Of a stretch of 64,000 nt of DNA, positions 6,701-61,700 are shown piece by piece. The notes beneath the pieces are model-generated. The model did no database searches and had not been told where the DNA came from. It worked only from the letters and a program-made list of their open reading frames with translations. Position 1 is the stretch's first letter. The number at the start of each line of letters is the position of its first letter. A program made the position numbers and the translations under genes. Where the stretch lies: positions 5,830,001 through 5,894,000 of the forward strand of contig JASTWF010000033.1 in assembly GCA_030390025.1 (NCBI GenBank), in the 5' to 3' direction. This stretch comes from Squalus acanthias (lineage: Eukaryota).

Positions 6701-7056
6701 TTTTGTTTTTCTCCTTCCTGTCTTTAGCTTTTATCCTTATTACCCTTTCCTCTGTCTCCCTGCTGAGGTTCCCAACCCCCTGCCACTTTAGTTTAAACCC
6801 TCCCCAACAGCACTAGCAAACAATCCCCCAAGGACATCGGTCCCGGCCCTGCCAGGTGCAGACCGTCCCGTTTGTACTGGTCCCACCTCCCCCAGAACCG
6901 GTTCCAATGTCCAAGGAATTTGAATCCCTCCCCCTTGCACCATTCCTCTAGCCACGTATTCATTTGAAATATCATCCTATTTCTACTCTGACGAGCACGT
7001 GGCACTGGTAGCAATCCTGAGATTACTACCTTTGAGGTCCTCTTTTTTAATTTACC
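3712..7056 (-). mobile_element. Young CR1 LINE, 5'-truncated within ORF1, inserted near the edge of the 29-bp satellite
   Basis: APE endonuclease (GITETW, GDFN, SDHN) and RT (GVPQGS, FADD); short tandem tail at 3712; satellite units on both sides. Confidence 0.95.
3812..6797 (-). pseudogene. CR1 ORF2 (APE endonuclease + reverse transcriptase), disrupted
   Basis: ORFs 5808-6665, 5052-5798 and 3812-5161; premature stop at 5808 and an 8-bp deletion near 5109 relative to the sister copy at 34213-38537. Confidence 0.9.
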
Positions 7057-10000: not shown

Positions 10001-12605
10001 AATATCCTCAGCTCCTCCCCACCCCACCTAATATCCTCAGCTCCCTCCCCACCCCCCCTAATATCCTCAGCTCCCCCGCAGCCCACCTAATATCCCCAGC
10101 TCATCCCCACCTCACCTAATATCCTCAGCTCCTCACCATCCCACCTAATATCCTCAGCTCCACCCCACCCCACCTAAAATCCTCAGTTCCTCGCCTCCCC
10201 ACCTAATATCCTCAGCTCCTCCCCACCCCACCTGGTATCCTCAGCTCCTCCCCAACTCACCTAATATCCTCAGCTCCTCCCCACCCCACCTAATAAACCT
10301 CAGCTCCTCCCCACCTCACCTAATATCCTCAGCTCCTCCCCACCTCACCTAATCTCCTCAGCTCCTCCCCACCCCACCTAATATCCTCAGCACCACCAAA
10401 CCCACCTAATATACTCAGCCCCTCCCCACCCCACCTAAAATCCTCAGTTCCTCGCCACCCCAACTAATATCCTCAGCTCCTCCCCAACCCATCTAATATA
10501 TTCAGCTCCTCCCCACCCCTATTAATATCCTCAGCTCCTCCCCAACCCACCTAATATCCTCAACTCCTCCCCAGCCACCCTAATATCCTCAGCTCCACCC
10601 AACCCAGCTAATATCCTCAGCTCCTCCCCACCCCACTAATATCCTCAGCTCCACTAAACGCACCTAAAATCCTCAGTTCCTCCCCAGCCCACCTAATATC
10701 CGCAGCTCCTCCCCACCCCACCTAATATTCTCAGCTTAACCAACCCCTACTAATATCCTCAGTTCCTCCCCACCCCACTAATATCCTCAGCTCCTCCCCA
10801 CCTCACCTAATATCCTCAGCTCCTCCCCAACTCACCTAATATCCTCAGCTCCACCCCACCAAACCTAATATCCTCAGCTCGTCCCCACGCCACCTACTAT
10901 CCTCAGCGACTCTCCACCACACCTAATATCCTCAGGTCCCATCCACCCCACCTAATATCCTCAGCTCCCCCCCACCCACCTAATATCCTCAGCTCCTCTC
11001 CACCCCACTTAATATCCTCAGCACCTCTCCACCCCACCTAATATCCTCAGCTCCTCCCAACCCCACCTAATATCCTCTGCACCTCCCAACCCCACCTAAT
11101 ATGCTCAGCTCCTCCCCACCCCACCTAATATCCTCAGCTCCCTCCCCTCACCCCTAATATCCTCCGCTCCCCCGCAGCCCACCTAATATCCCCAGCCCAT
11201 CCCCACCTCACCTAATATCCTCAGCTCCTCACCATCCCACCTAATATCCTCAGCTCCACCCCACCCCACCTAAAATCCTCAGTTCCTCGCCTCCCCACCT
11301 AATATCCTCAGCTCCTCCCCATCCCAACTAATATCCTCAGCTCCTCACCACCACACCTAATATCCTCAGCTGCTCCCCACCCCACCTAATATCCTCAGCT
11401 CCTCCCCACCCCACTAATATCCTCAGCTCCACTAAACCCACCTAAAATCCTCAGTTCCTCCCCACCCCACCTAATATCCTCAGCTCCTCCCCACCCCACC
11501 TAATATTCTCAGCTTAACCAACCCCTACTAATATCCTCAGCTCCTCCCCACCCCACCTAATATTCTCAGCTTAACCAACCCCTACTAATATCCTCAGCTC
11601 CTCCCCACCTCACCTAATATCCTCAGCTCCTCCCCCCCCAACTACTATCCTCAGCTCCTCCCCACCCCACCTAATATCCTCAGCTCCTCCCCACCTCACC
11701 TAATATCCTCAGCTCCTCACCATCCCACCTAATATCCTCAGCTCCTCCCCACCCCACCTAATATCCTCAGCTCCTCCCCACCTCACCTAATATCCTCAGC
11801 TCCTCCCCACCCCACCTGGCATCCTCAGCTCCTCCCCAACCCACCTAATATCCTTAGCTCCTCCCCACCCCTACTAATATCCTCAGCTCCTCCCCACCCC
11901 ACTAATATCCTCAGCTCCTCCCCACCCCTACTAATATCCTCAGCTCCTCCCCAACCCACCTAATATCCTTAGCTCCTCCCCACCCCTACTAATATCCTCA
12001 GTTCCTCCCCAACCCAACTAATATCCTCAGCTCCTCCCCACCCCACCTAAAATCCTCAGCTCTTCCCCACCCCACCTAAAATCCTCAGCTCTTCCCCACC
12101 CCACCTAATATCCTCAGCTCCTCCCCACCTCACCTAATATCCTCAGCTCCTCCCCACCTCACCTAATATCCTAAGCTCCTCCCCACCCCACCTAATATCC
12201 TCAGTTCCTCCCCAACCCACCTAATATCCTCAGCTCCTCCCCACCCCACCTAAAATCCTCAGCTCTTCCCCACCCCACCTAATATCCTCAGCTCCTCCCC
12301 ACCTCACCTAATATCCTCAGCTCCTCCCCACCTCACCTAATATCCTAAGCTCCTCCCCACAACACCTAATATCCTCAGCTCCTCCCCACCCCACCTACTA
12401 TCCTCAGCTCCTCTCCTCCCCACCTAATATCCTCAGCTCCTCCCCACACCACCTAATATCCTCAGCTCCTCCCCACCCCGCCTAATATCCTCAGCTCCTC
12501 CCCACTCCACCTAATATCCTCAGCTCCTCCACACGACACCTAATATCCTCAGCTCCTCCCCACCCCAACTAATATCGCCAGCTGCTCCCAATTCCACCTA
12601 ATATC
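7055..12605. repeat. 29-bp tandem satellite, consensus CCTAATATCCTCAGCTCCTCCCCACCCCA (2-3 further units at 3642-3711)
   Basis: 29-bp period read directly (e.g. 7981 and 8010); extreme C/G strand skew; variant blocks recur near 8461, 10071 and 11168. Confidence 0.97.
9780..9994 (+). mobile_element. Solo LTR (215 bp) inside the satellite
   Basis: TG...CA termini, 5-bp TSD CCACC (9775-9779 and 9995-9999), internal TATAAATA and ATTAAA. Confidence 0.85.
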
Positions 12606-15351: not shown

Positions 15352-18300
15352 CTGGGGGCTTCTCAGCCCGTTTACCTGTGCCCACTAAGATATGATGCTT
15401 TGAAGAGACCGTGCGTGAAGATGGGGATGGAGAAGGTGCAAGGGACCTATCTGCTGGACACTGGAGCTTCAAGCACCATTGTCTATGCGGATAACCCGAC
15501 CACATCACCTCTATCGAGCGGTGTCCCTCATAACTTAATAGGGATCACCGGGAACGGACAGGCTGGGTCTTTCTCCATCCCGCTAGCCATCGATCTGGGT
15601 ACACTCCATACGGAGTGGAAATGTGTCCTGATGCGGTGGGAGCGGGAGGCAATAGGCATTTTGGGGGCAGACTTCATACTGGCCCACAAGATATTAGTGG
15701 ATTTCCGGAATCACTGTCCTTGGGAGGCAGTATGCTGGGGAAAGGAGAAGGAGGTGGTAGTTATACCAGGGAAGCAATGCAAGGGAACCGTGTGTACGAT
15801 GAAGCCCAAGGGTAGTTATGACTTTGAACCTTTGGTCACTTCTACCCCGGCGGAGTACAGAGCGGATGTGTGAGCCAACCTCGCGGCATTCGCTACACAC
15901 AAGCACGACTGTGTGAGGGTAATAGGGGTGGAGGTCAGAGTAGACAGAGACCCCATGGCCCGACCACAGAAACAGTACAACTTCCCCAGAGAGGCAGAGG
16001 TGGATTTAGAGATGGCATTGTGATCACTGGTTGAGCAGGGTGTGTTGAGACCCATAGCGACCCATGTGAACTCTCCGATTTGGCCGGTTAGGAAACTGGA
16101 CAATTCGTGGAGAGCCACTGTGGACTATCGGGTTCTTAACAAGAACATCCCAGCCTGTGCCCCCACCATTACAGCCGTAGCCGACCTGATCGGGAGTATC
16201 CCGGCATCCGCGAAAACATTCACGGTGCTGGACATTTCGAACGGATTCTGGTCTATCCCTCTCAAAAGTGAGGACCAGTATAAATTTACGTTCACTTTCA
16301 AGGGTCAGCAGTACACATGGACGTGCCTTCCCCAAGGGTTTCATAACAACCCTTCTATTTTCCACCAATATATGGCCAACTGTTTAAAAGGTTTCAGTAC
16401 ACCACAGCGGCTTGTACAGTACGTGGACGATCTGCTTTTGTTCTCCAACGAGGAGGAGTTACATGGCCCCCTGCTGGCTGAGCTGCTGAGTCTGTTAAAG
16501 GAAGCTGGGTTCAAGGTTAATCCCAAGAAAGCACAGATCCGCCAGCAGGACGTAAAATTCCCCAGGCTGACCATACGTGCTGGGGAGAGGGCGATCGATA
16601 AGGTGAAAAGGAAGGCGGTACAGGAGCTACCTGCCCTGACCACGATAACGGGGGTAAGATCCCTCTTGGGACTCACAGGGTTATGCAGGGATTTCATAGA
16701 GGACTATGCCGCTATGGCAGCTCCTCTACTCCGGCTCCTTCACAAGGGAGTGGACTGGGAGTGGGATGAGGACTGCAGGGCAGCTTTTAGTCGTCTGTAG
16801 AGAGATCTGCAGACCGCACAGGCTTTAGGAGCGATTGATGGGGGAAAGGAGTTATTTTTGGAGGTAGCTGCCACAGGGGACAGTTTGAGCGCAGTGCTGC
16901 TCCAGGAGCGGCATGGCAAGCTGAGTCCTGTGGTATACTCATCAAGAATCCTCACAGATGTAGAGAGTGGGTACTCCAATTGTGAGAGGCACCGGCTTGC
17001 CACACATTGGGCCGTGAGGAGATCACAAATCTTCACGGGGGCGTCCCCGGTAACTCTCTTAACCCATCATTAGCCCAGTCAGATGCTTCTGGATGGGAGG
17101 ATAAAGGACGGCATGGTGAGCAGTGCACGCATTGCTCGCTGGACTTTATTGCTCTCTCAAACGAATTTGAGTGTGAAAGGCCTCTGTGAGCCCAAGCTCG
17201 CCTCAAGTTTGATCTACCCAGGGGTGGCCCACAAATGTTCTGTTGAATGGGTATGGGACGTAAACATAGGGTTTCGGGCTGGGATCCATGTAGACGGGTC
17301 CAGTACAGTGGTGGCAGGTGAGCAACTCACTGGATGCGGGATTTTTGACCCAAGGGCAGGCATTGCCAAGGCCATTAATCTCCCGAGCACCATGAGTGCC
17401 CAGCACTCTGAACTGTCGGCGGTGGTGTATGTGGTTACTCACCCCGAAGTGTACCCTACGGCCTATACTATTTGCTCGGACAGCATGTTCACTTGCAATT
17501 CGTGTACAGAATATTTAGCCATTTGGTCTCGTCGTGGGTTCACATCTGCAGACGGGAAACCCCTAGCAACAAAGCCATTGTTGCAACAGATCATAACATT
17601 GATAGGAACCCAGGGGGATTTCTATATCCACAAATTTAAGGCCCATTCAAAGGCGGAACCCCGTGCGGAGGGCAATCAGCAGGCCAACGTGATGACCAAA
17701 AAGGGTGCTCGAACGGGCACGTTTTGGGATCTATATGGGTCGAGTCAGGTAGCAGCGATCAGAGACAGAGGTGGGGCCCAAGGGAGTGCAGGGTGGAGCA
17801 TTGGCCCCGGACCTAAAGATGGTCCAGGCACGGGATCCCGTCCTAAAGACTGTTCTGGAGACGCTGGCTAAGGGAGATAAGGTAGAGGGTCCATACGGAG
17901 TGGCAGGTATTACGGAAAGGAAGGGATGGTTTTCAGAGGGGAACAGTGGGCAGTTCCGCAGCAGCACCGGAGAGAATTCCTTCAGTTGGCCGACGAGGGT
18001 CCAGGAGGTGGGCACCCCGGGCCGGAGACCACCTGGCAACGGGTGGAACAGGCAGGGTGGTGGCCGCAACTGAGGGAGGACGTCCGCGACTTCTGCGCGG
18101 ATTGCTTGGTGTGTGCTGCAAACAACCCTGAGCCCCAAAAAAGGAAGGTATCCATGGGACACACTAGGAGAGTGGAGGGACCATGGCAATCCATACAGGT
18201 CGATTATATCGGACCGCTGCCTACCACACAGGGGGGTTACAAGTACTGCCTGGTCCTGGTGGATGTGTTCTCTCAATGGGTAGAAGCCTTCCCATGCCGA

Positions 18301-28748: not shown

Positions 28749-29693
28749 ATGACAGGAAGTCTCGGACCCGTTTCATGCTCCTCCTGTGCCATGTGGGAAA
28801 CCAGGGACACTTCCAGTGTCCCTGACAACTACGTGTGCGGGAAGTGTGTCCAGCTGCAGCTCCTGACAGCCCGCATGGCGGTGCTGGAGCTGCGTGTGGA
28901 CTCACTCTGGAGCATGCACGATGCCGAGAACTCGGTGAATCGCTCATTTAGTGAGTTGTCCACACCGCAGGTAAAGGCTAGGACAGACAGTGAATGGGTG
29001 ACCAAGAAGCAGGGCAATATCAGGAAGGTAGTGCAGGAGTCCCCTGTGGTCATCTCCCTCCAAAACAGGTATGCCGCTTTGGATACTGTTGGGGGAGATG
29101 GCCTACCAGGGGAAGGCACTAGCAGCCAGGTTCATGGCACCATGGCTGGCTCTGCTGCACAGCAGGGCGGGAAAAAGAGTGGTAGGGCTATAGTGATAGG
29201 GGACTCAATTGTAAGGGGAATAGACAGGAGTTTCTGTGGCCGCAACCGAGATTCCAGGATGGTATGCTGCCTCCCTGGTGCAAGGGTCAAGGATGTCTCG
29301 GAGCGGCTGCAGAACATTCTGAAGAGGGAGGGTGAACAGCCAGCTGTCGTGGTGCATGTAGGTACCAACGATATAGGTAAAAAGCGGGAAGAGGTCCTAC
29401 AAGCAGAATTTAGGGAGCTAGGAGCTAAATTAAAAAGTAGGACCTCTAAGGTAGTAATCTCTGGATTGCTACCAGGGCCACGTGCTAATCAGAATAGAGA
29501 GAACAGGATAGTGAGATTGAATACGTGGCTTGAGCAGTGGTGCAGGAGGGAGGGATTCAAATTCCTGAGGCATTGGAACCAGTTCTGGGGGAAGTGGGAC
29601 CTGTACAAAAGGGACGGTCTGCACTTGGGCAGGACTGGAACCGATGTCCTCGGGGTAATATTTGCTAAAGCAGTTCGGGAGGATTTAAACTAA
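28749..29693 (+). CDS. CR1 ORF1p: CxxC..CxxC zinc finger, leucine zipper, SGNH/GDSL esterase
   Basis: CSSC..CGKC; IVIGDSIVRG, HVGTND, DGLHL; intact 314 aa. Confidence 0.9.
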   Translation: MTGSLGPVSCSSCAMWETRDTSSVPDNYVCGKCVQLQLLTARMAVLELRVDSLWSMHDAENSVNRSFSELSTPQVKARTDSEWVTKKQGNIRKVVQESPVVISLQNRYAALDTVGGDGLPGEGTSSQVHGTMAGSAAQQGGKKSGRAIVIGDSIVRGIDRSFCGRNRDSRMVCCLPGARVKDVSERLQNILKREGEQPAVVVHVGTNDIGKKREEVLQAEFRELGAKLKSRTSKVVISGLLPGPRANQNRENRIVRLNTWLEQWCRREGFKFLRHWNQFWGKWDLYKRDGLHLGRTGTDVLGVIFAKAVREDLN

Positions 29694-32642
29694 TATGGCA
29701 GGGGAATGGGAACCTATGTAGCGAAACAGGGGGAAGTAATATGCAGTCAGAAACAAATGTTAGAAGGGTGAGAAACAATAGGGGAAGGCCGAGTAAACAA
29801 AGGCAAGAAACACAAAGGGCCATAGTAAATCATAAGTCTAAAAGGACAAAGGATGTTAATAAAACAAGCCTAAAGGCTCTGTGTCTTAATGCAAGGAGTA
29901 TCCGTAATAAGGTGAATGAATTGACTGTGCAAATAGATGTTAACGGATACGATGTGATTGGGATTACAGAGACGTGGCTCCAGAACAATCAAGGCTGGGA
30001 ACTGAACATCCAGGGGTATTCAACATTCAGAAAGGATAGAATAAAAGGAAAAGGGGGTGGGGTAGCATTGCTGGTTAAAGAGGAGATTAATGCAATAGCT
30101 AGGAAGGACATCAGCTTGGAGTATGTGGAATCAATATGGGTTGAGCTGCAGAACACCAAAGGGCAGAAAACGTTAGTGGGAGTTGTGTACAGACCTCCAA
30201 ACAGCAGTAGTGAGGTGGGGGAGGGTATGAAACAGGAAATCAGAGGTGCGTGCAAAAAAGGCACGGCAGTTATCATGGGTGACTTTAATAAGCATATAGA
30301 TTGGGCTACTCAAACTGGAAGCAATACGGTGGAGGAGGATTTCCTGGAGTGTTTAAGGGATGGTTTCCTAAACCAATATGTTGAGGAACCAACTCGAGGG
30401 GAGGCCATCCTGGACTGGGTGTTGTGTAATGAGGAGGGACTAATCAGCAATCTTGTGGTACGAGGCCCCCTGGGGAAGAGTGACCATAGTATGGTGGAGT
30501 TCTACATTAGGATGGAGAAGGAAACAGTTAAGTCAGAGACCATGGTCCAGAACTTAAATAAGGGCAACTTTGAGGGTATGAGGCGTGAATTGGTGAGGTT
30601 AAATTGGCAAGCGATATTTAAGGGGCTATCAGTGGAAGGGCAATGGCAGACATTTAGAGATCGCATGGATGAACTACAACAATTGTACATCTCGGTCTGG
30701 CGTAAAAATAAAAAAGGGAAGGTGGCTCAACCATGGCTAACAAGGGAAATCAGGGATAGTATTAAAACCAAGGAAGTTGCATACAAATTGGCCAGAAGTA
30801 GCAGCAAACCCGGGGACTGGGAGAACTTCAAAACTCAGCAGAGGAGGACGAAGGGTTTGATTAGGGCAGGGAAAATAAAATATGAAAGGAAGCTTGCAGA
30901 GAACATTAAAATGGACTGCAAAAGCTTCTATAAATATGTAAAAAGAAAGAGGTTAGTAAAAACAAACGTAGGTCCCCTGCAGTCGGAAACAGGGGAAGTC
31001 GTAATGGGGAACAAGGAAATGGCAGATCAATTGAACAAGTACTTTGGTTCGGTGTTTACTGTGGAGGACACACACAACCTGCCGGAAATAAAAGGGGTCA
31101 GAGGATCTGGTAAGAGGGAGGAGCTGAGGGAAATCCTTATTAGTCGGGAAAAGGTATTGGGGAAATTGATGGGACTGAAGGCTGAAAAATCCCCGGGGCC
31201 TGATGGTCTGCATCCCAGAGTACTTAAGGAGATGGCCTTGGAAATAGTGGATGCATTGACGATCATTTTCCAACATTCCTTAGACTCTGGATCAGTTCCG
31301 ATGGAGTGGAGGGAGGGAGAAAGCAGGGAATTATAGACCGGTCAGCCTGACATCGGTCGTGGGTAAAATGATGGAAGCAATTATTAAAGATGTCATAACA
31401 GACCATTTGGAAAGTGGCGACATGATATGTCCAAGTCAGCATGGATTTGTGAAAGGGAAATCATGCTTGACAAATCTTCTGGAATTTTTTGAGGATGTTT
31501 CCAATCGGGTGGACAGGGGGGAACCAGTAGATGTGGTGTATTTGGACTTTCAGAAGGCCTTCGACAAGGTCCCACACAAGAGATTGGTGAGCAAAGTTAA
31601 AGCACATGGGATTGGGGGTAATGTGTTGACGTGGATTGAGAACTGGTTGGCACACAGGAAACAAAGAGTAGGAGTAAATAGGTACTTTTCAGAATGGCAG
31701 GCAGTGACCAGCGGGGTACCGCAGGGTTCGGTGCTGGGACCCCAGCTGTTTACATTATATATTAATGATTTGGACGAAGGGATTAAATGTAATATCTCCA
31801 AATTTGCGGATGACACTAAATTGGGAGGCAGTGTGAACAATGAGGAGGATGCTAGGAGGCTACAGAGTGACTTGGACAGGTTGGGTGAATGGGCAAATGT
31901 ATGGCAGATGAAGTACAATGTGGATAAATGTGAGGTTATCCACTTTGGTGGTAAAAATAGAGAGGCGGACTATTACCTGAATGGTGGCAGATTAGGGAAA
32001 GGGGACGTGCAACGAGACCTGGGCGTCATGGTACATCAGTCACTGAAGGTGGGAATGCAAGTGCAGCAGGCAGTCAAGAAAGCAAACGGAATGATGGCCT
32101 TCATAGCAAGGGGATTTGAGTACAGGAGTAGGGAGGTGATGCTACAGTTGTACAGGGCCTTGGTGAGGCCACACCTGGAGTATTGTGCGCAGTTTTGGTC
32201 TCCTAACTTAAGGAAGGACATTCTTGCTATTGAGGGAGTGCAGCGAAGGTTCACTAGATTGATTCCTGGGATGGCCGGATTGACATATCAAGAAAGATTG
32301 GGTCAACTGAACTTGTATCCTCTGGAGTTCAGAAGAATGAGGGGGGATCTTATAGAGACATTTAAAATCCTGACTGGTTTAGACAAATTAGATGCGGGCA
32401 GAATGTTCCCAATGGTAGGGAAAACTAGAACCAGGGGTCACAGTTTAAGGATTAAGGGGAAGCCATTTAGGACTGAGCTGAGGAGAAACTTCTTCACCCA
32501 GAGAGTGGTGAATCTATGGAATTCTCTTCCACAGAAGGTTGTTGAGGCCAGTTCGCTAAATATATTCAAAAGGGAGTTAGATATAACACTCACAACTAAG
32601 GGGATCAAGGGGTATGGCGAGAAAGCAGGAATGGGGTACTGA
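29684..32642 (+). pseudogene. CR1 ORF2 (APE + RT) with a frameshifting deletion near 31310
   Basis: ORFs 29741-31336 and 31359-32642; VANVTPLFKK motif missing at the break. Confidence 0.9.
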
Positions 32643-32851
32643 GGTAGCATGTTCAGCCATGAACGCATTGAATGGCGGTGCAGGCTCGAAGGACCGAATG
32701 GTCTACTCCTGTACCTATTTTCTATGTTTCTATGTTTCTAAAAAGGCTTTTGATAAAGTGCCAGATAATAGGATTGCCAGAAAAGTTGAAGCCCATGGAA
32801 TAAAAGGAACAGTGGCAGCATGGTACGAAATTGGCAATGTGACAGGAAACA

Positions 32852-37454: not shown

Positions 37455-38396
37455 TTAGTTTAAACCCTCCCCAACAGCACTAGCAAACACTCCCCCTAGG
37501 ACATCGGTCCCGGCCCTGCCCAGGTGCAGACCGTCCCGTTTGTACTGGTCCCACCTCCCCCAGAACCGGTTCCAATGTCCAAGGAATTTGAATCCCTCCC
37601 CCTTGCACCATTCTTCTAGCCACGTATTCATTTGAAATATCCTCCTATTTCTACTCTGACTAGCATGTGGCACTGGTAGCAATCCTGAGATTACTACCTT
37701 TGAAGTCCTCTTTTTTAATTTACCTCCTAACTCCCTATATTCTGCTTTAAGGACCTCATCCCGTTGTTTACCTATATCGTTGATGCCTATGTGCACCACG
37801 ACAACTGGCTGTTCGCCCACCCCCTCCAAAGTGTTCTGTAGCCGCTCCGAGACGTCCTTGACCCTTGCACCAGGGAGCCAACACACCATCCTGGAGTCTC
37901 GATTGCGGCCGCAGAAACGCCTATCTATTCCCCTTACAATTGAATCCCCTATCACTATAGCTCTTCCACACTTTTTCCTCCCAGCCTGTGCAGCAGAGCC
38001 ACCCATGGTGCCAGGAAGTTGGCTGCTGCCGCCTTCCCCTGATAAGTCATCCCCCCCAACAGCATCCAAAGTGTTTGAGAGGGGAATGGCCACAGGGGAC
38101 CCCTGTACTACCTGCCTGCACCTCTTACTCTGCCTGGTGGTCACCCATTCACTTCCTGCCTGTACACCCTTTACCTGCGTTGTGACCAACTCGCTAAACG
38201 TGTTATTCACGACGTTCTCAGCGTCGCGAATGCTCCAATATGCATCCAGCCGCAGCTCCAGCGCCGCAATGCTGTCCGTCAGTAGCTGCAGCTGGATACA
38301 TTTCCCACACACATGGTCGTCAGGGACACAGGAAGTGTCCCTGATTTCCCACATATTGCAGGAGGAGCATATCACGGCGCCGAGCTCTCCTGACAT
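37455..38396 (-). CDS. CR1 ORF1p (zinc finger, zipper, SGNH esterase)
   Basis: CSSC..CGKC, GDSIVRG, DGLHL; 313 aa. Confidence 0.9.
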   Translation of the reverse strand: MSGELGAVICSSCNMWEIRDTSCVPDDHVCGKCIQLQLLTDSIAALELRLDAYWSIRDAENVVNNTFSELVTTQVKGVQAGSEWVTTRQSKRCRQVVQGSPVAIPLSNTLDAVGGDDLSGEGGSSQLPGTMGGSAAQAGRKKCGRAIVIGDSIVRGIDRRFCGRNRDSRMVCWLPGARVKDVSERLQNTLEGVGEQPVVVVHIGINDIGKQRDEVLKAEYRELGGKLKKRTSKVVISGLLPVPHASQSRNRRIFQMNTWLEEWCKGEGFKFLGHWNRFWGRWDQYKRDGLHLGRAGTDVLGGVFASAVGEGLN

Positions 38397-42639: not shown

Positions 42640-45620
42640 CTTGCTCACCGGGCTCCGAGTGTGCTGGCTTGAGTCAGTCAACCGACACTTTTTCGATCCT
42701 GTTGCCCACTTGCAGGGTGAAAAATTTGTCCCCAGCCTGTAGCACCTTGTAGGGCCCGTCGTACGGGGGTTGGAGGGGTCCACGGACGAAAACAAACCGT
42801 GCCTGGTGCAGGCTTAGTGGGACGTGTGAGGTGGATTCGCCATGTCGGGCAATGGGCAACGGGGCGAACTGCAGCGCCGGTGAGGCGAAGTCGTGGTGTT
42901 GCTGGTCGGCTGACCAGGGTGTCGTGGCGGTGGGCAGGAACTCGCCGGGTACGTGCAGCGGCTGACCTTACATGAGCTCTGCTGCCGATGCGTGGAGGTC
43001 TTCTTTAACCATGGTGCGCAGGCCGAAGAGGACCCACGGAAGTCGGTCGGTCCAGGCGCCGTCTTGGATGCTGGCTCGAAGAGATGCCTTCAATGATCTG
43101 TGGAACTGCTCACACAGTCCGTTGGCTTGGGGGTGGTATGCTGTGGTGCGGTGAATGGTCACCCCGAGATTGCGTGCAACAGCGGTCCAGAGTTCAGAGG
43201 TAAATTGCGGACCTCTGTCCGACGTCATGTCGGAAGGGACGCCGAACCGTGCGACCCAGGTGCTGACGAAGGCTCTGGCGATGTCGGCGGTGGTGGTAGA
43301 GGTCAGTGGAATTGCCTCAGGCCAGCGTGTGGTGCGGTCAACGATGGTCAGCAAGTGCGTGTGGCCTTGCGACGGCGGCAGGGGCCCGACGATGTCCATG
43401 TAGATGTGGTCGAATCTCCGCGAGGGGACGGTAAACTCGTCGAGGGGTGCTTTGGTGTGTTGCTGTACCTTGGCCCGTTGGCAGGCTAGGCAGCAGTTGG
43501 CCCAAGTACGCACATCCTTGCGAAGGCCGCACCAGACGAAGCGGTTGGCTACCAATTTGATGGATGCGCGGGCACCGGAGTGGGAGAGGTTGTGGAGAAT
43601 GTCGAATACCCGGCGGCGCCAGGACGCTGGGACGACGGGCCGAGGTTGACATAGGGATATGTCGCACTTGACCATGACTGCGGTCGGGCCACAGGCGACG
43701 TCGGCCAGGCGTAGCCCGGGTAGGTTGGTGGGTGCAGAGAGCAGATCAGGGTCGGTGATCTGGTCTGCTGCGAGTTGAGCGTAGTCGACTGCTAGGTGTG
43801 CGGCGTAGATGGCGGGGCGGGAGAGTCAGTCGGCTACCACATTGTCTCGGCCGGAGATGTGTTGGATGTCCGTGGTGAACTCGGACACTGCCGCGAGCTG
43901 GCGCTGCTGCCTGGCAGACCAGGGGTCGGTTGTCTTTGCCATTGCGAATGTCAGGGGCTTGTGGTCGACAAACGCCGTGAAGGGCTGGCCGTCAAGCAAA
44001 AACTGGAACTGGCGGACCGCAAGGAAAAGCGCGAGGAGCTCGCGGTCAAAGGTGCTGTACTTGACCTCCGGGGGGCGTAGTTGGCGGCTGAAGAAGGCAA
44101 GTGGTTGCCAGGCACCGTCGACCCATTGCTCATACATGGCGCCGACCGCGTGGTCGGAGGCGTCCGTGGTGAGCGCTACCCTGGCATTGGTCCGTGGGTG
44201 CGCGAGCAGGGTGGCCGTTGGCGAGCGCGGTCTTGGAGGAGTCGTAGTCGGCTGACGCGTCTGCCGTCCATTCGACTGCCATCTTGCCGCTCCTGCCCCA
44301 GAGGGCTTCATACAGGGTCCTCATGAGGAACGCCGCTTTGGGGATGAAGCTGTCATGAAATTCACCATCCCAAGGAACTCCTGGAGGCCTTTGATGGTGG
44401 TGGGGCAGGGAAATTGTTGGACGGCCTGCACCTTGGTAGGCAGGGGAATGGCCCCAGCATGGGTGATGTGGTGGCCGAGGAAGTCGATCTTGTCCAGGTC
44501 GAACTGGCATTTGGCTGGGCTGAGGATGAGCCCGTGTTTGCTGAGCCGCCCAAACAGGATGCGGAGGTGTTCCAGGTGTTCCTGCTTGGAGGAACTGCCT
44601 ACCAGGATGTCGTCCAGGTAGACGAACAGGAACATCAGGTCCCGAAGGACCGAGTCCATGAGCCGTTGGAATGCCTGGGCCGCGTTTTTGAGGCCGAAGG
44701 GCATCCGCAGGAACTCGAACAGGCCGAAGGGGGTGATTACGGCCATCTTGGGGACGTCCGCGGGGTGGATGGGGACTTGGTGGTAGCCGCGCACCAGGTC
44801 GACCTTGGAAAACACTGAGCGGCTGGCCAGTCTAGCCGAGAAGTCCTGAATGTGCGGCACGGGGTACCGATCAGGGGTGGTGGCGTAATTGAGGCGGCGG
44901 TAATCCCCGCAGGGGCGCCAACCTCCGCCTGGTTTGGGGGCGATGTGGAGTGGGGAGGCCCAGGGACTGTTGGAGCGGCGGATGATGCCGAGCTGTTCCA
45001 TGGTGGCAAACTTGGTCCGCGCGATCTCCAGTTTGGCTGGGTCCAGCCTGCGGGCGTGGGCGTACACTGGGGGGCCTGTGGTGGGGATGAAGTGTTCCAC
45101 CCAGTGTTTGGCGGCCACCGCGGAGACGGTCGGATTGGTAAGGGCCGGGAATTCGGCCAGGAGTGCCGAGTAGTCATCCATGGCCAGGGCGTGGCACTGT
45201 GACGCCATGTCGGCGGGTTGACGGGGGGCCATGGCGCCCAGGATGGGGGACATGGTGTTCATGTCCACGAGGCGGTGACAAGGGATGTCTACCAGTAGGC
45301 CGTGGGTGCACAGGAAATCTGCGCTGATGAGAGGGGAGAGCACCTTGGCAGTGATGAACTCCCATCAGTAGCGGGGACCAGCGAGGGCGAGGGTGACTGT
45401 CCGGGTGCCATACGTCCGGATTTCCGAGCCGTTAGCAGCAGCAAGCGCCGGTCCTCGTACGCCCTTTTGGATGTCGAGGGAGGAGGCCGCGATGATGCTG
45501 TGCTGAGCCCTAGTGTCGCACAGGAACCAGCGGCCGGTTTTGTCATTCGTGACGTACAGCAGGGAGCTAGCGTGTCCCACGGCCTTCGTGGGGGCTTGTA
45601 CGGGGGCGGACTTCAAAGTG
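42640..45620 (-). pseudogene. pol: Gypsy pol (PR-RT-RH-IN), frameshifted
   Basis: ORFs 45365-45616, 44321-45343, 43826-44311, 42968-43675 and 42674-42859 (PYDGPYKV GPY/F motif). Confidence 0.9.
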
Positions 45621-47656: not shown

Positions 47657-50131
47657 CATAGATCCATAGATACATAGATACATAGAAGAGTACAGCACAG
47701 TACAGGCCCTTCGGCCCTCGATGTTGTGCCGAGCTTTGTCCGAGACCAAGATCAAGCTATCACACTCCCTATCACTCTGGTGTGCTCCATGTGCTTATCC
47801 AATAACCGCTTGAAAGTTCCTAAAGTGTCCGACTCCACTGTCACAGCAGGCAGTCCATTCCACACCCCAACCACTCTCTGAGTAAAGAATCTACCTCGGA
47901 CATCCCTTCTATATCTCCCCCCATGCACCTTATAGTTATGCCCCCTTGTAACAGCTGCCTCTACCCGAGGAAATAGTCTCTGAACATCCACTCTATCTAT
48001 CCCCCTCATCATCTTATAAACCTCTATTAAGTCGCCTCTCATCCTCCTCCGCTCTAAAGAGAAAAGCCCCAACTCCCTCAATCTTTCCTCATAAGACCTC
48101 CCCCCCAAACCAGGCAGCATCCTGGTAAATCTCCTTTGCACTCTTTCCAATGCTTCCACGTCCTTCCTATAGTGAGGTGACCAGAACTGCACACAATATT
48201 CCAAATGTGGTCTCACCAAGGTCCTGTACAGTTGCAGCATAACCTCACGGTTCTTAAACTCAAACCCTCTGTTAATAAACGCCAACACACCATAGGCCTT
48301 CCTTACTGCTCTATCCACTTGAGTGGCAACCTTCAGAGATCTGTGGATATGAACCCCCAGATCCCTCTGCTCCTCCACGTTCCTCAGAACCCTGCCGTTG
48401 ACCCTGTAATCCTTATTCAAATTTGCCCTACCAAAATGAATCACCTCGCACTTATCAGGGTTAAATTCCATCTGATATTTTTCGGCCCAGCTCTGCATCC
48501 TATCAATGTCTCTTTGCAGCCTACAACTGCCCTCCACCTCATCCACTACTCCACCAATCTTGGTGTCATCAGCAAATTTACTGATCCACCCTTCAGTCCC
48601 CTCCTCCAAGTCATTGATAAAAATCACAAACAGCAGAGGACCCAGCACCGACCCCTGTGGCACACCGCTGGTAACTGGTCTCCAGTCCGAAAATGTTCCA
48701 TCCACCACCACCCTCTGCCTTCTATGAGTTAGCCAGTTACTTATCCAATCGGCCAAATTTCCCTCTATCCCACAACTCCTTACTTTCTTCATGAGACGAC
48801 CATGGGGATCCTTATCAAACGCCTTACTAAAATCCATGTATACGACATCAACTGCTCTACCTTCATCTACACACTTAGTTACCTCCTCAAAGAATTCAAT
48901 CAAATTTGTTAGGCAAGACTTACCTTTCACGAATCCGTGTTGACTATCCCTGATTAAGTTGCCCCTTTCCAAATGGTCATAAATCCTATCCCTCAGGACC
49001 TTTTCCATTATCTTACCAACCACCGAAGTAAGACTAACCGGCCTATAATTACCAGGGTCATTCCTATTTCCTTTCTTGAAGAGAGGAACAACATTCGCCA
49101 CTCTCCAGTCCTCTGGCACCATCCCCGTGGACAGTGAGGACCCAAAGATCAAAGCCAGAGGCTCTGCAATCTCCTCCCTTGCCTCCCAAAGAATCCTAGG
49201 ATATATCCCATCTGGCCCAGGGGACTTATCGACCCTCAGGTTCTTCAAAATTGCTAAAACATCTTCCCTCAGAACATCTACCACCTCCAGCCTATCCACC
49301 TTTTTCACACTCTCATCCTCAAGAACATGGCCCCTCTCCTCGGTGAACACTGACGAAAAGTACTCATTCATCACCTCTCCTATCTCTTCTGACTCCATGC
49401 ACAAGTTCCCACTACTGTCCTTGACCGGCCCTACCCTCACCCTGGTCATTCTTTTATTTCTCACATAAGAGTAAGAAGCCTTGGGGTTTTTCTTGATCCG
49501 ACCCGCCAAGGACTTCTCATGCCCCCTCCTAGCTCTCCTAAGCTCTTTTTTTAGCTCATTCCTTGCTACCTTGTACCCCTCAATCGACCCAACTGAACCT
49601 TGTTTTCTCATCCTTACATACGCTTCCTTTTTCCTCTTGACTAGACATTCAACCTCTTTTGTGAACCATGGTTCTCTCACTCGGCCATTTCCTCCCTGCC
49701 TGCCAGGGACATACCTATCAAGGACACACAGTAATTGCTCCATGAAAAAGCTCCACTTATCGTTTGTGCCTTTCCCTGATAGTTTCTGTTCCCATCTTAT
49801 ACTCCCTAATTCTTGCCTAATCGCATCATAATTACCCCTCCCCCAATTATAAACCCTGCCCTGCCGTATGGCCCTATCCCTCTCCATTGCAATAGTGAAA
49901 GTTACCGAATTGTGGTCACTATCTCCAAAGTGCTCTCCCACATACAAATCAAACACTTACCAAATCCAACGTGGCCCCACCCTCTTGTCGGCCTATCCAC
50001 ATATTGTGTCAGGAAAGCCTCCTGCACACACTGTGCAAAAACTATCCCATCCGAACTGTTTGACCTATAAAGGTTCCAATCAATATTTGGAAAGTTGAAG
50101 TCACCCATGACAACTATTCTGTGACCTCCAC
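47657..50131 (-). mobile_element. 5'-truncated CR1 LINE of a distinct subfamily
   Basis: 734-aa ORF 47752-49956 (end of APE + RT); different 3' UTR; TSD ACCATA. Confidence 0.93.
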
Positions 50132-55527: not shown

Positions 55528-58500
55528 CATAGATACATAGATACATAGAAGATAGGAGCAGGAGTAGGCCATCCGGCCCTTCGAGCCTGCTCCGCCATTT
55601 AATGAGATCATGGCTGATCCTTCAATTCAGTATCCCGTCCCCGCCTTCTCTCCGTAACCCTTAACCCCTTTTGCCTGTAGAAATATATCTAATTCCCTCT
55701 TAAATATATTTAATGAGCTGGCGTACACTGCCCTCTGTGGCAATGAGTTCCACAGGTTCACCACTCTCTGAGTGAAGAAATTCCCCCTCATTTCTGTCCT
55801 AAATGGTTTAGCCCTTATCCTTAAATTATGTCCTCTAGTTCTGTTCTCACCCGCCAAGGGAAACATTCCTTCTGCATCTAATCTGTCTAGACCTGTCAGA
55901 ATTTTATACACTTCTATGAGGTCCCCTCTCAATCTTCTAAACTCCAGTGTGTACATCCCTAAACTACATAGTCTCTCCTCATAGGTCAATCCCGCCATTC
56001 CTGGTATCAGCCTGGTGAATCGCCGCTGCACCCCCTCCATGGCAAGAACATCTTTCCTCAGATGAGGCGACCAAAACTGTACACAGTACTCGAGGTGTGG
56101 TCTCACCAGTGCCCTGTACAGCTGCAGCAAGGTATCCCTGTTCCTGTATTCCAACCCTTTTGCTATGAAGGCCAGCATACCGTTTGCCTTCTTGACCGCC
56201 TGTTGCACCTGCATGCTCGCCTTCAGTGACTGGTGTACAAGAACACCCAGGTCTCTCTGTACTTCCCCCTCTCCCAATTTATTGCCATTTAAATAATAAT
56301 TTGCCCTCCCGTTCCTGCACCCAAGGTGGATAACTTCGCACTTGTCCACATTATAGTGCATCTGCCATTTATCCGCCCAATCACCCAGTCTGTCCAAATC
56401 GCTCTGGAGCTTCCTGGTCTCCTCCTCTGAGCCCACCCCCCCTCCTAGTTTAGTGTCGTCTGCAAATTTGGAAATGCTGCATTCGACTCCCTGATCCAGG
56501 TCATTAATATAAATTGTGAACAGCTGGGGACCCAGGACAGATCCCTGTGGTACCCCACTTGTTACTGCCTGCCATTCAGAAAATGAGCCGTTTATTCCAA
56601 CTCTCTGTTTTCTATCTGACAGCCAGTTCTCTATCCACGTCAATACTTTCCCCTTTATCCCATGAGCTTCAATTTTCCATGCTAATCTTTTATGTGGGAC
56701 CTTATCGAAGGCCTTTTGGAAGTCCAGGTACACCACATCTACTGGCTCTCCCCCATCTATTTTACCAGTTACTCCCTCAAAAAATTCCAATAGATTAGTC
56801 AAGCACGATTTACCCTTTGTAAATCCATGTTGACTCTGTCCTATCCTGTCCCCATTTGCTAAGTGCTCGGCTATTTCATCCTTAATGATGGACTCCAGCA
56901 TTTTGCCCACAACTGATGTAAGGCTTACAGGTCTGTAATTACCTGCTTTTTCCCTACCCCCCTTTTTGAATAGTGGGGTAACGTTAGCTACCCTCCAATC
57001 CATGGGCACTGTTCCCGAGTCTAATGAATTCTGAAAAATCATGCTTAGTGCATCCGCTATCTCTAGGGCCACCTCCTTCAGTACCCTAGGATGCATGTTA
57101 TCAGGCCCTGGGGATTTGTCCGCCTTCAATCCCTTTAGCTTCCTTAACACCATATCCTTAGAGATATTGATTTGCGTCAGTTCCTCCTTTGCCAATGTCC
57201 CTATTTTTCCCGATATCCCAGGGAGGTTTTTTGTGTCTTCCTTCGTAAAGACTGACCCAAAGTATGCATTTAGTTGGTCTGCCATTTCCTTATTTCCCAT
57301 TATATATTCCCCCGTATCTGACTGCAATGGACCAACTTTGGTTTTCACCAGTCTTTTCCTCTTGATATACTTATAAAAGCTTTTGGAGTTAGTTTTTATA
57401 TTTTCCGCCAGCTTGCTTTCGTAAGCTATTTTGCCCTTCTTGATTAAGCCCTTTGCCCTCCTTTGCTTTATCTTAAACTGTTCCCAATCTTCCGCTCTGG
57501 CGCGTTTTTTGGCTATTTTATACGCCCTATCTTTGGATTTTATGCTGTCTCTAATTTCCCCTGTTATCCACGGTTGAGTCACCTTTTTAGATTTCCTTTT
57601 ATGCCAGATTGGTATAAACAATTTTTGCAATTTTGTCATTCTATCTTTAAATGCTTGCCATTGTTTATCTACCTCCAGTCCTCCCAGGAACGTTGTCCAA
57701 TCAGACCTACTCAGTTCCCGTCTAATGGCATCATAATTCCCCTTGTTTAAATTCAGGACCTGAGTCTCTGAGTCAATTTCTTCGCTCTCCATTTCGAGTG
57801 AGAAATCGATCATGTTATGATCGCTCTGACCCAAGGGTCCCCGTACAACAAGATTACTAATTAGTCCCTTCTCATTGCACAGTACCCAGTCCAATATAGC
57901 CTGTTCCCGAGTTGGTTCCTCGACATATTGATCCAGATAACCATCCCTTAAACACTCAAGGAATTCCTCCTCCTCATTATTTTTACTGATTAGGCTAGTC
58001 CAATCTATATGTAAGTTAAAGTCACCTATGATGACAACTGTGCTCTTATTGCACGCTTCTCTAATTTCCCTCGTGATGCCCTCCCCAACCTCTATTTTAC
58101 TATTTGGAGGCCTATATACCACTCCTATTAATGTTTTTCGCCCCTCGCTATTTCTTAGCTCCACCCATATAGATTCTGTATTAACTGAGTTAATATCCTT
58201 CCTTTCAATTGCATTTATCCCCTCTTTTACCAGCAATGCTACCCCTCCTCCCTTTCTTTTTTGTCGATCCTTCCTAAATACTGAATACCCCTGTATGTTA
58301 AGCTCCCAGCCCTGCTCACCCTGCAACCATGTTTCCGTAATCCCAATTAGATCATAATTATTAACCTCTATTTCCACAGCTAATTCATCTACCTTGTTCC
58401 TGATGCTTCTCGCATTAAGGTATAAAACCCTCAGGCTTTTTTTATGCTCACATTTTTTATGAATTAGTTTGGCCCTTTGTTTTTTGTTCCTCTCCTTTTT

Positions 58501-58776
58501 ACCATTTATTTCTGTCTGCCTTTCACTTTCCTCTATTTCACTACATGGGTTTCTAGCCCCCTGCCATACTAGTTTAAATGCTCCCGAACTGCTTTATCAA
58601 AATTTACCCCGAGAACCTCAGTTCCATCTTTGCACAGGTGTAGACCGTCCCTTTTGTATAGGTCACACCTACCACAAAACTGGTCCCAATGCCTCAAAAA
58701 TTTAAAACCCTCCCTCTTACACCACTGCTCAAGCCACGTATTTAGCCTAACTATCCTGTTCTCTGTACTCTTACTA
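55528..58776 (-). mobile_element. Inner CR1 of the same subfamily, 5'-truncated in ORF1
   Basis: Own tail at 55528; near-identical to the outer copy. Confidence 0.9.
55627..58578 (-). CDS. Uninterrupted CR1 ORF2 (APE + RT); no AUG upstream of the endonuclease
   Basis: The 916-aa track ORF starts at a GTG; the frame stays open 67 more codons up to TTTAAAC at the ORF1 end. Confidence 0.88.
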   Translation of the reverse strand, partial: FKLVWQGARNPCSEIEESERQTEINGKKERNKKQRAKLIHKKCEHKKSLRVLYLNARSIRNKVDELAVEIEVNNYDLIGITETWLQGEQGWELNIQGYSVFRKDRQKRKGGGVALLVKEGINAIERKDINSVNTESIWVELRNSEGRKTLIGVVYRPPNSKIEVGEGITREIREACNKSTVVIIGDFNLHIDWTSLISKNNEEEEFLECLRDGYLDQYVEEPTREQAILDWVLCNEKGLISNLVVRGPLGQSDHNMIDFSLEMESEEIDSETQVLNLNKGNYDAIRRELSRSDWTTFLGGLEVDKQWQAFKDRMTKLQKLFIPIWHKRKSKKVTQPWITGEIRDSIKSKDRAYKIAKKRARAEDWEQFKIKQRRAKGLIKKGKIAYESKLAENIKTNSKSFYKYIKRKRLVKTKVGPLQSDTGEYIMGNKEMADQLNAYFGSVFTKEDTKNLPGISGKIGTLAKEELTQINISKDMVLRKLKGLKADKSPGPDNMHPRVLKEVALEIADALSMIFQNSLDSGTVPMDWRVANVTPLFKKGGREKAGNYRPVSLTSVVGKMLESIIKDEIAEHLANGDRIGQSQHGFTKGKSCLTNLLEFFEGVTGKIDGGEPVDVVYLDFQKAFDKVPHKRLAWKIEAHGIKGKVLTWIENWLSDRKQRVGINGSFSEWQAVTSGVPQGSVLGPQLFTIYINDLDQGVECSISKFADDTKLGGGVGSEEETRKLQSDLDRLGDWADKWQMHYNVDKCEVIHLGCRNGRANYYLNGNKLGEGEVQRDLGVLVHQSLKASMQVQQAVKKANGMLAFIAKGLEYRNRDTLLQLYRALVRPHLEYCVQFWSPHLRKDVLAMEGVQRRFTRLIPGMAGLTYEERLCSLGMYTLEFRRLRGDLIEVYKILTGLDRLDAEGMFPLAGENRTRGHNLRIRAKPFRTEMRGNFFTQRVVNLWNSLPQRAVYASSLNIFKRELDIFLQAKGVKGYGEKAGTGY

Positions 58777-61700
58777 TCTCGCCATTCCTGGTATCAGCCT
58801 GGTGAATCGCCGCTGCACCCCCTCCATGGCAAGAACATCTTTCCTCAGATGAGGCGACCAAAACTGTACACAGTACTCGAGGTGTGGTCTCACCAGTGCC
58901 CTGTACAGCTGCAGCAAGGTATCCCTGTTCCTGTATTCCAACCCTTTTGCTATGAAGGCCAGCATACCGTTTGCCTTCTTGATCGCCTGTTGCACCTGCA
59001 TGCTCGCCTTCAGTCACTGGTGTACAAGAACACCCAGGTCTCTCTGTACTTCCCCCTCTCCCAATTTATTGCCATTTAAATAATAATTTGCCCTCCCGTT
59101 CCTGCACCCAAGGTGGATAACTTCGCACTTGTCCACATTATAGTGCATCTGCCATTTATCCGCCCAATCACCCAGTCTGTCCAAATCGCTCTGGAGCTTC
59201 CTGGTCTCCTCCTCTGAGCCCACCCCCCCTCCTAGTTTAGTGTCGTCTGCAAATTTGGAAATGCTGCATCCGACTCCCTGATCCAGGTCATTAATGTAAA
59301 TTGTGAACAGCTGGGGACCCAGGACAGATCCCTGTGGTACCCCACTTGTTACTGCCTGCCATTCAGAAAATGAGCCGTTTATTCCAACTCTCTGTTTTCT
59401 ATCTGACAGCCAGTTCTCTATCCACGTCAATACTTTCCCCTTTATCCCATGAGCTTCAATTTTCCCTGCTAATCTTTTATGTGGGACCTTATCGAAGGCC
59501 TTTTGGAAGTCCAGGTACACCACATCTACTGGCTCTCCTCCATCTATTTTACCAGTTACTCCCTCAAAAAATTCCAATAGATTAGTCAAGCACGATTTAC
59601 CCTTTGTAAATCCATGTTGACTCTGTCCTATCCTGTCCCCATTTGCTAAGTGCTCCGCTATTTCATCCTTAATGATGGACTCCAGCATTTTGCCCACAAC
59701 TGATGTAAGGCTTACAGGTCTGTAATTACCTGCTTTTTCCCTACCCCCCTTTTTGAATAGTGGGGTAACGTTAGCTACCCTCCAATCCATGGGCACTGTT
59801 CCCGAGTCTAATGAATTCTGAAAAATCATACTTAGTGCATCCGCTATCTCTAGGGCCACCTCCTTCAGCACCCTAGGATGCATGTTATCAGGCCCTGGGG
59901 ATTTGTCCGCCTTCAATCCCTTTAGCTTCCTTAACACCATATCCTTAGAGATATTGACTTGCGTCAGTTCCTCCTTTGCAAATGTCCCTATTTTTCCCGA
60001 TATCCCAGGGAGGTTTTTTGTGTCTTCCTTCGTAAAGACTGACCCAAAGTATGCATTTAGTTGGTCTGCCATTTCCTTATTTCCGTTATATATTCCCCCG
60101 TATCTGACTGCAATGGGCCAACTTTGGTTTTCACCAGTCTTTTCCTCTTGATATACTTATAAAAGCTTTTGGAGTTAGTTTTTATATTTTCCGCCAGCTT
60201 GCTTTCGTAAGCTATTTTGCCCCTCTTGATTAAGCCCTTTGTCCTCCTTTGCTCTATCTTAAACTGTTCCCAATCTTCCGCTCTGGCGCTTTTTTTGGCT
60301 ATTTTATACGCCCTATCTTTGGATTTTATGCTGTCTCTAATTTCCCCTGTTATCCACGGTTGAGTCACCTTTTTAGATTTCCTTTTATGCCAGATTGGTA
60401 TAAACAATTTTTGCAATTTTGTCATTCTATCTTTAAATGCTTGCCATTGTTTATCTACCTCCAGTCCTCCCAGGAACGTTGTCCAATCAGACCTACTCAG
60501 TCCCGTCTAATGGCATCATAATTCCCCTTGTTTAAATTCAGGACCTTAGTATCTGAGTCAATTTCTTCGCTCTCCATTTCGAGTGAGAAATCGATCATGT
60601 TATGATCGCTCTGACCCAAGGGTCCCCGTACAACAAGATTACTAATTAGTCCCTTCTCATTGCACAGTACCCAGTCCAATATAGCCTGTTCCCGAGTTGG
60701 TTCCTCGACATATTGATCCAGATAACCATCCCTTAAACACTCAAGGAATTCCTCCTCCTCATTATTTTTACTGATTAGGCTATTCCAATCTATATGTAAG
60801 TTAAAGTCACCTATGATGACAGCTGTGCTCTTATTGCACGCTTCTCTAATTTCCCTCGTGATGCCCTCCCCAACCTCTATTTTACTATTTGGAGGCCTAT
60901 ATACCACTCCTATTAATGTTTTTCGCCCCTCGCTATTTCTTAGCTCCACCCATATAGATTCTGTACTAACTGAGTTAATATCCTTCCTTTCAATTGCATT
61001 TATCCCTTCTTTTACCAGCAATGCTACCCCTCCTCCCTTTCTTTTTTGTCGATCCTTCCTAAATACTGAATACCCCTGTATGTTAAGCTCCCAGCCCTGC
61101 TCACCCTGCAACCATGTTTCCGTAATCCCAATTAGATCATAATTATTAACCTCTATTTCCACAGCTAATTCATCTACCTTGTTCCTGATGCTTCTCGCAT
61201 TAAGGTATAAAACCCTCAGGCTTTTTTTATGCTCACATTTTTTATGAATTAGTTTGGCCCTTTGTTTTTTGTTCCTCACTCTTTTACCATTTATTTCTGT
61301 CTGCCTTTCACTTTCCTCTATTTCACTACATAGGTTTCTAGCCCCCTGCCATACTAGTTTAAATGCTCCCGAACTGCTTTATCAAAAATTACCCCGAGAA
61401 CATCAGTTCCATCTTTGCACAGGTGTAGACCGTCCCTTTTGTATAGGTCACACCTACCACAAAACTGGTTCCAATGCCTCAAAAATTTAAAACCCTCCCT
61501 CTTACACCACTGCTCAAGCCACGTATTTAGCCTAACTATCCTGTTCTCTGTACTCTTACTAGCACGTGGCACTGGTAGTAATCCAGAGATTACTACCTTC
61601 GAGGTCCTACTTTTTAGCTTGGCTCCTAACTCCCTAAATTCTACTTGTAGGACCTCTTCCCTTTTTTTAGCTACGTCGTTGGTACCAACATGTATCACGA

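Follow-up and report, generated by a model that had tools for sequence, protein, structure and literature searches.

CR1 LINEs of the esterase type very probably produce an ORF1-ORF2 fusion through programmed -1 frameshifting where ORF1 ends, as judged from the sequence of several element copies in a window of 64,000 nucleotides (the whole stretch of Squalus acanthias DNA that was analysed: contig JASTWF010000033.1, positions 5,830,001 to 5,894,000) and of their relatives. Retrovirus-style frameshifting into ORF2 had been proposed in the initial annotation, and the proposal is supported by codon constraint and by the lack of an AUG in several lineages; the slip itself we infer. Because the heptamer is fixed, the residues it encodes are conserved and ORF2 lies one base back, often without a start codon, ORF2 is likely to be reached by a -1 slip, and the junction is likely to be a real, conserved -1 frameshift site. 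What is likely to be new is the presence of a probable -1 site in a major group of vertebrate LINEs; the recoding mechanism itself is known.

The majority of ribosomes would stop at the TAA or TAG that ends ORF1 and release ORF1p (~315 aa), and a few, slipping from U_UUA_AAC to UUU_AAA, would continue via a basic linker into ORF2. The product would be an esterase-endonuclease-RT fusion of ~1,300 aa, and the slip rate would set a low ratio of ORF2p to ORF1p, as for gag-pol. Since jawed vertebrates share this 10-nt signal, the question of how a LINE ORF2 is translated becomes testable with a single reporter pair. Frameshifting would also tell where CR1 ORF2p really begins, a matter of relevance to annotation and to CR1 retrotransposition assays, and the junction may be a frameshift site that does not depend on classical RNA structure. 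In the chicken genome, CR1 is described as the most abundant repeat (PMC11835228).

CR1 copies and their junctions in the window

The window contains several CR1-type LINE copies. The plus-strand copy, of subfamily A, has an ORF1 (28749..29693) that consists of a cysteine-rich N-terminus, a helical segment and an SGNH esterase, with matches to Pfam Lipase_GDSL_2 (E 3e-13) and to PDB 4C1B (E 1.6e-32), which we take to be the esterase ORF1 of zebrafish ZfL2-1. The closest named ORF1 homologues belong to sharks and rays, with a match of 74% to a sawshark protein, and in an esterase tree the ORF1s of the window group with those of birds, lizards and turtles, away from the L2-type ORF1s of teleosts. 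ORF2 encodes an APE-type endonuclease and a reverse transcriptase (RT) without RNase H or integrase, the 3′ UTR is short with a stem-loop and tandem octamer repeats, and 5′ truncation is frequent. Judged by these ORF domains, the 3′ UTR and the esterase tree, the element fits the esterase-type CR1 group. The CR1_7 subgroup described by Metcalfe and Casane in 2014 (PMC4120745), with type IV ORF1 (zinc finger/leucine zipper plus esterase), is alike in having two ORFs, a cysteine-rich and SGNH esterase ORF1, an endonuclease-RT ORF2, vertebrate hosts and a short 3′ UTR terminating in octamer repeats; in the available text of that paper the words "frameshift" and "overlap" do not occur.

TTTAAAC followed directly by TAA or TAG occurs five times within the window, at 29684 on the plus strand and at 6797, 37464, 58578 and 61363 on the minus strand; shuffled sequences contain 0.26 on average, and none of 100 shuffles reached five. 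The five junctions named in the initial annotation are therefore borne out by exact count, and so is their arrangement: in all five the heptamer is phased as T_TTA_AAC, encoding the final Leu-Asn of ORF1 ahead of the stop, and ORF2 (endonuclease and RT) lies in the -1 frame relative to the SGNH esterase ORF1. The -1 frame is closed at its 5′ side by a stop, put at about six codons upstream of the heptamer beforehand and found at six codons in all five copies, so that a start inside ORF1 is shut out for ORF2. As had been noted, four copies keep this frame open from the heptamer onwards, in each case as far as the endonuclease, and the 37464 copy stops at codon 41. The ORF2 starts listed originally hold in part: those offset by 57 and 132 nt are ATG codons, but the 201-nt start of the 58578 copy and the 84-nt start of the 61363 copy are GTG.

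In the subfamily A copy the heptamer forms the final two codons of ORF1 (29684..29690), the TAA stop adjoins it (29691..29693), a run of G occupies positions +11 to +14 past it (29701..29704) and the upstream -1-frame stop is at 29666..29668; ORF2 (29684..32642) comprises a 65-codon linker, endonuclease and RT, with a frame break near 31284-31336. The other copies are on the minus strand. Two belong to subfamily B and carry the heptamer with TAA: at 6788..6797 ORF2 is open for 329 codons with its first ATG at codon 44, and at 37455..37464 ORF1 is open (38399-37455) ahead of the interrupted -1 frame. The remaining two belong to subfamily C and carry the heptamer with TAG: the copy at 58569..58578 is 5′-truncated, with an ORF1 remnant of 198 nt and an intact ORF2 of 983 codons from the heptamer (55627..58578), and the copy at 61354..61363 has most of ORF1 upstream and an ORF2 stop at codon 288. 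In both subfamily C copies the first in-frame ATG is codon 255, past the NARS, ETW, GDFN and SDH motifs of the endonuclease.

The spacing of the upstream stop was also observed more widely: in all nine vertebrate representatives a -1-frame stop lies exactly six codons before the heptamer, as TAA, TAG or TGA and over differing ORF1 residues. It may be selected as a trap for premature -1 slips.

Conservation of the junction

CR1 is very abundant in the 3.7-Gb genome, where a search with one ORF1 query gave 59,085 first-look candidates. Protein searches with three different ORF1s, together with unselected stretches, yielded 88 junctions anchored on the ORF1 end, among which 83 have the exact heptamer and stop and the remaining five are mutated, truncated or old copies; one ORF1 query included Leu-Asn, and the set it produced was selected for residues, not for codons. 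In 500 kb of unselected DNA the exact junction is present in five of six cases. A second set, anchored on the motif (n = 88), allowed the endonuclease to be located in 68 copies, in the -1 frame in 60 and with that frame open in 56 of the 60; the eight others look like copy-specific indels. Frames intact from heptamer to ORF2 stop span 975-999 codons and occur in four subfamilies.

The nucleotides of the junction are conserved beyond what the protein needs. Codons were aligned for ten lineage representatives, eight from this genome and two from metagenome contigs, with ORF1 identities of 33-92%. All ten have TTA-AAC, and only three of the 34 invariant amino-acid columns use a single codon, two of the three being TTA and AAC; the other eight invariant leucine columns all vary in codon, and TTA accounts for 20 of 143 other leucine codons. 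Free synonymous variation of Leu-Asn, which the initial annotation had set beforehand as one of the results that would count against frameshifting, is absent from the ten. The lineages are related and counts across representatives are not independent; since the eight shark lineages alone have 16 single-codon columns among 71 invariant ones, the distant elements carry the weight of the test. The base preceding TTA is T in nine of nine vertebrate representatives, in codons for Asp, Gly, His or Ala. Consistently, residues that have no codon ending in T (E, Q, K, M or W) precede the terminal Leu-Asn in 1/79, 0/46 and 0/84 LN-ending ORF1s (three protein sets that share a few members), compared with 49/79 one position earlier; this test is no more than supportive, because such residues are seldom present at positions -6 and -7 either (3/79 and 4/79).

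Two protein searches recovered 179 proteins, 105 of which reach the last helix; 88 of these 105 are of vertebrate type (score over 100), with labels that include sharks, rays, chimaera, coelacanth, sturgeon, frogs, turtles and lizards. LN is the terminus in 75 of the 88 vertebrate-type homologues reaching the last helix; the other 13 comprise six truncated proteins, four variants and three proteins that continue in the -1 frame. Where 6-13 residues have been inserted before LN, it is still terminal. Among bird-type ORF1s LN is terminal in 84 of 89. The D-G-x-H esterase motif is kept in 24 of these 84 LN-ending bird-type proteins and missing from 60 (within the P0305-P0419 range), and catalysis therefore appears to be dispensable in many avian CR1s. 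Teleost L2-type esterases terminate two residues earlier without LN, and the heptamer is absent from teleost L2-type relatives among the loci examined; therefore, the signal belongs to the CR1 side of the esterase family.

Farther afield, 46 of 105 distant ORF1 representatives end in LN and 11 in GN (background 0.36% and 0.22%), with ~40 of the 105 endings having no heptamer assignment and FF endings left out of the counts on account of their uncertain phase. The GN endings follow Gln in nine cases and Ser or Ala in two, all compatible at the protein level with G_GGA_AAC, and one clade has x-Lys-Asn near the end, which at the protein level fits A_AAA_AAC. The GN and KN endings would thereby fit other classic slippery heptamers. 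A quick tree of 90 rows, chosen because their esterase domain was usable, joins SGN and SKN endings as sisters with 99% support and has no endings of these types in the L2-type clade. At the nucleotide level, three elements from outside this genome have ORF2 in the -1 frame: L031 has T_TTA_AAC_TAG and no ATG ahead of the endonuclease, and of two metagenome elements L032 has G_TTA_AAC_TAG and L033 has G_TTA_AAC ten codons before the ORF1 stop. Scans of viral, prokaryote-genome and plasmid DNA for amniote or GN/KN-type elements were blank or gave matches in which the junction was missing.

Some database entries deserve comment in their own right. Two ray gene models (P0032, P0136) have ORF1 continuous into the -1-frame linker and ORF2; they are probably indel copies or corrected models, not evidence of frameshifting. 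Two proteins labelled as SGNH hydrolases of Pseudomonas and Proteus (P0008, P0169) and a 741-bp contig of an Aeromonas assembly (L214) resemble contamination by cartilaginous-fish CR1.

Routes to ORF2

Most of what is known about the translation of ORF2 from bicistronic LINE mRNA comes from a few models and is explained by reinitiation; for L1 and SART1, reinitiation or stop-start coupling applies, and human L1 ORF2 reportedly needs no frameshift and is still made when its AUG is lost. The L1, SART1 and ZfL2-1 elements resemble CR1 in having a bicistronic mRNA with a downstream ORF2 and, in the L2 case, a homologous esterase, but the L2-type relatives on the ZfL2-1 side lack the terminal LN and its heptamer. 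The main alternative to frameshifting is termination-reinitiation in the manner of L1, independent of AUG if need be, with TTTAAAC-stop as the termination/reinitiation signal and with ORF1p and ORF2p made separately. Weighed against the start codons and linkers of the elements, this explanation is improbable.

One test is provided by subfamily C. All 150 scored genome matches are identical over the first 68 codons, which are free of methionine, and ~112 of the 150 (by hand count) have the full frame of 988 codons; the subfamily is young. Its intact copies have their first AUG at codon 255, and therefore it is a working element without an AUG for an ORF2 that contains the endonuclease. A suspicion that subfamily C is an ORF1-less variant, raised by the first ten loci all being cut near the junction, was rejected because 20 further copies have scattered truncation points and eight of them have an intact ORF1.

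Across the lineages, the linker between heptamer and endonuclease (32-77 codons) is basic, variable and poorly alignable. In 11 of 11 representatives it is stop-free solely in the -1 frame, the other frames having 1-12 stops; shuffled linkers stay open in 0.4-21% of cases, depending on the representative. An in-frame ATG is present in the linker of eight of the 11 (A, B, D1, D2, E, F, I and J), which reinitiation could use, but its position wanders from codon 16 to codon 58, and lineages G and H, like subfamily C, have no AUG ahead of the endonuclease. No in-frame AUG overlaps the ORF1 stop or lies close to it, as SART1-like coupling would have it; in A and C the ATG closest to the stop lies in another frame, and no conserved near-cognate start codon was found past the stop. 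The direct adjacency of stop and heptamer, the absence of the heptamer from teleost L2-type relatives and the standing of reinitiation as the usual explanation for LINE ORF2 are all points in its favour, but it leaves unexplained the strict -1 phase, the opening of the frame exactly at the heptamer, the apparent exchange among three classic heptamer types and the L033 heptamer that precedes its stop by ten codons. Lineages with an ATG in the linker might use both frameshifting and reinitiation.

Reinitiation also gains from the outcome of the search for a frameshift stimulator. As in canonical -1 signals, an X_XXY_YYZ heptamer is in phase with the upstream ORF and the downstream ORF is open in the -1 frame from it, but no stem-loop or pseudoknot 5-9 nt downstream was found by local folds, Rfam or a long-range duplex search. 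Local folds of 60 and 100 nt in ten representatives gave z-scores of -1.94 to +1.36 with no common helix, and so agree with the initial annotation, which had seen no convincing conserved structure downstream; Rfam has no match at the junction, and no conserved long-range partner or duplex was found. Efficient -1 frameshifting usually involves a stimulator, and the missing stimulator is the weak point of the case for frameshifting. Candidate stimulators are the stop codon next to the heptamer and the G-run: G occupies +11 to +14 in all ten vertebrate representatives (related lineages) against a background of 1% per position, but the run is 3 nt closer in L032 and absent from L033. A G-quadruplex was rejected as a general feature (G4Hunter-type scores of 0.84-1.6, with one placed by the fold model in only two of ten), as was pairing of the G-rich segment with the 3′ UTR in the manner of BYDV: such pairing ranks first or second in three B/C copies but only midway down the ranking in A and F, with cognate pairs no better than swapped ones.

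Two other explanations fit the data poorly. That Leu-Asn is a protein constraint on the C-terminus of the esterase, with inherited codons and a -1 phase frozen by accident, is very unlikely and largely refuted: the common ancestry of the vertebrate copies and the many single-codon columns of the shark representatives speak for it, but L2-type esterases end two residues sooner without LN, LN outlasts the catalytic motif in birds and moves with the end of the ORF, other leucine codons vary freely, and the constraint offers no route to the ORF2 of subfamily C. Hardly any probability attaches to a joining of ORF1 and ORF2 in RNA (by splicing, editing or polymerase slippage) or to a separate ORF2 transcript: joining would likewise give AUG-less ORF2s a start codon, but contigs of four runs, tentatively taken to be RNA, that match 29200-30400 have no joint or indel at the junction and are colinear where they bridge it (a weak argument), the heptamer contains no long homopolymer, and a separate transcript of subfamily C would still lack an AUG.

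A programmed -1 frameshift has precedent outside CR1. U_UUA_AAC, G_GGA_AAC and A_AAA_AAC are listed among the most shift-prone heptamers, with U_UUA_AAC as the site of the coronavirus IBV and a G_UU(A) type in equine arteritis virus (PMC5009743). The viral sites and retroviral gag-pol share with CR1 the heptamers, their phase and a structural gene upstream of a polymerase in the -1 frame; they differ in that no 3′ pseudoknot or stem-loop was detected in CR1, and in that CR1 is a LINE and encodes no protease (by Pfam) to cut the fusion. A stop immediately 3′ of the heptamer is also present in RSV and BYDV. Among non-LTR elements, the Dictyostelium elements TRE5-A and TRE3-A are said to need -1 frameshifting to express ORF2 (PMC5911963); they too are of APE type, but belong to another lineage and host, and the legend that makes the statement gives neither heptamer nor experiment, whereas CR1 has a canonical, codon-constrained heptamer. 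Frameshifting has been invoked for HeT-A gag (PMC5009743), and +1 frameshifting or reinitiation for Paramecium non-LTR elements (PMC5405496). A literature search found no paper linking CR1 to frameshifting, although the 1997 papers on chicken and turtle CR1 and Repbase notes may mention an overlap; term look-up in the available text of PMC11835228, PMC8665684, PMC13405545 and PMC5006619 gave nothing on CR1 frameshifting, and the accessible part of a 2016 frameshifting review has no mention of "CR1".

A broader proposal has about an even chance of being correct. An ancient branch of CR1, including distant relatives as well as the transposons that dominate in sharks, turtles and birds, would have adopted retrovirus-like polymerase expression, swapping -1 heptamers among U_UUA_AAC, G_UUA_AAC, G_GGA_AAC and A_AAA_AAC without local RNA structure; the stop and the G-run, possibly bound by protein, would be a new type of stimulator, and an uncleaved esterase-endonuclease-RT fusion would carry out retrotransposition.

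Other features of the window

The 3′ UTR of the CR1 copies (~32640-32740 on the plus strand, and the corresponding stretch of the 6797, 37464 and 58578 copies) folds into a stem-loop of 8 bp plus 5 bp that precedes the octamer repeats, and subfamilies A, B/C and F differ in it by compensatory changes; it is likely, we infer, to be the recognition site of the RT. Other retroelements are present as well. At 16024-17871 on the plus strand, RT is followed by RNase H in a fragmented pol of the LTR-retroelement type. Further retroelements have RT frames at 47752-49956 and 44321-45364 on the minus strand; one is 734 aa long and resembles the CR1 reference at only 66%, and one lies in a region of 57-63% GC. 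The region 6000-12000 has an extreme C skew (GC skew of -0.6 to -0.84) and is probably a tandem repeat tract.
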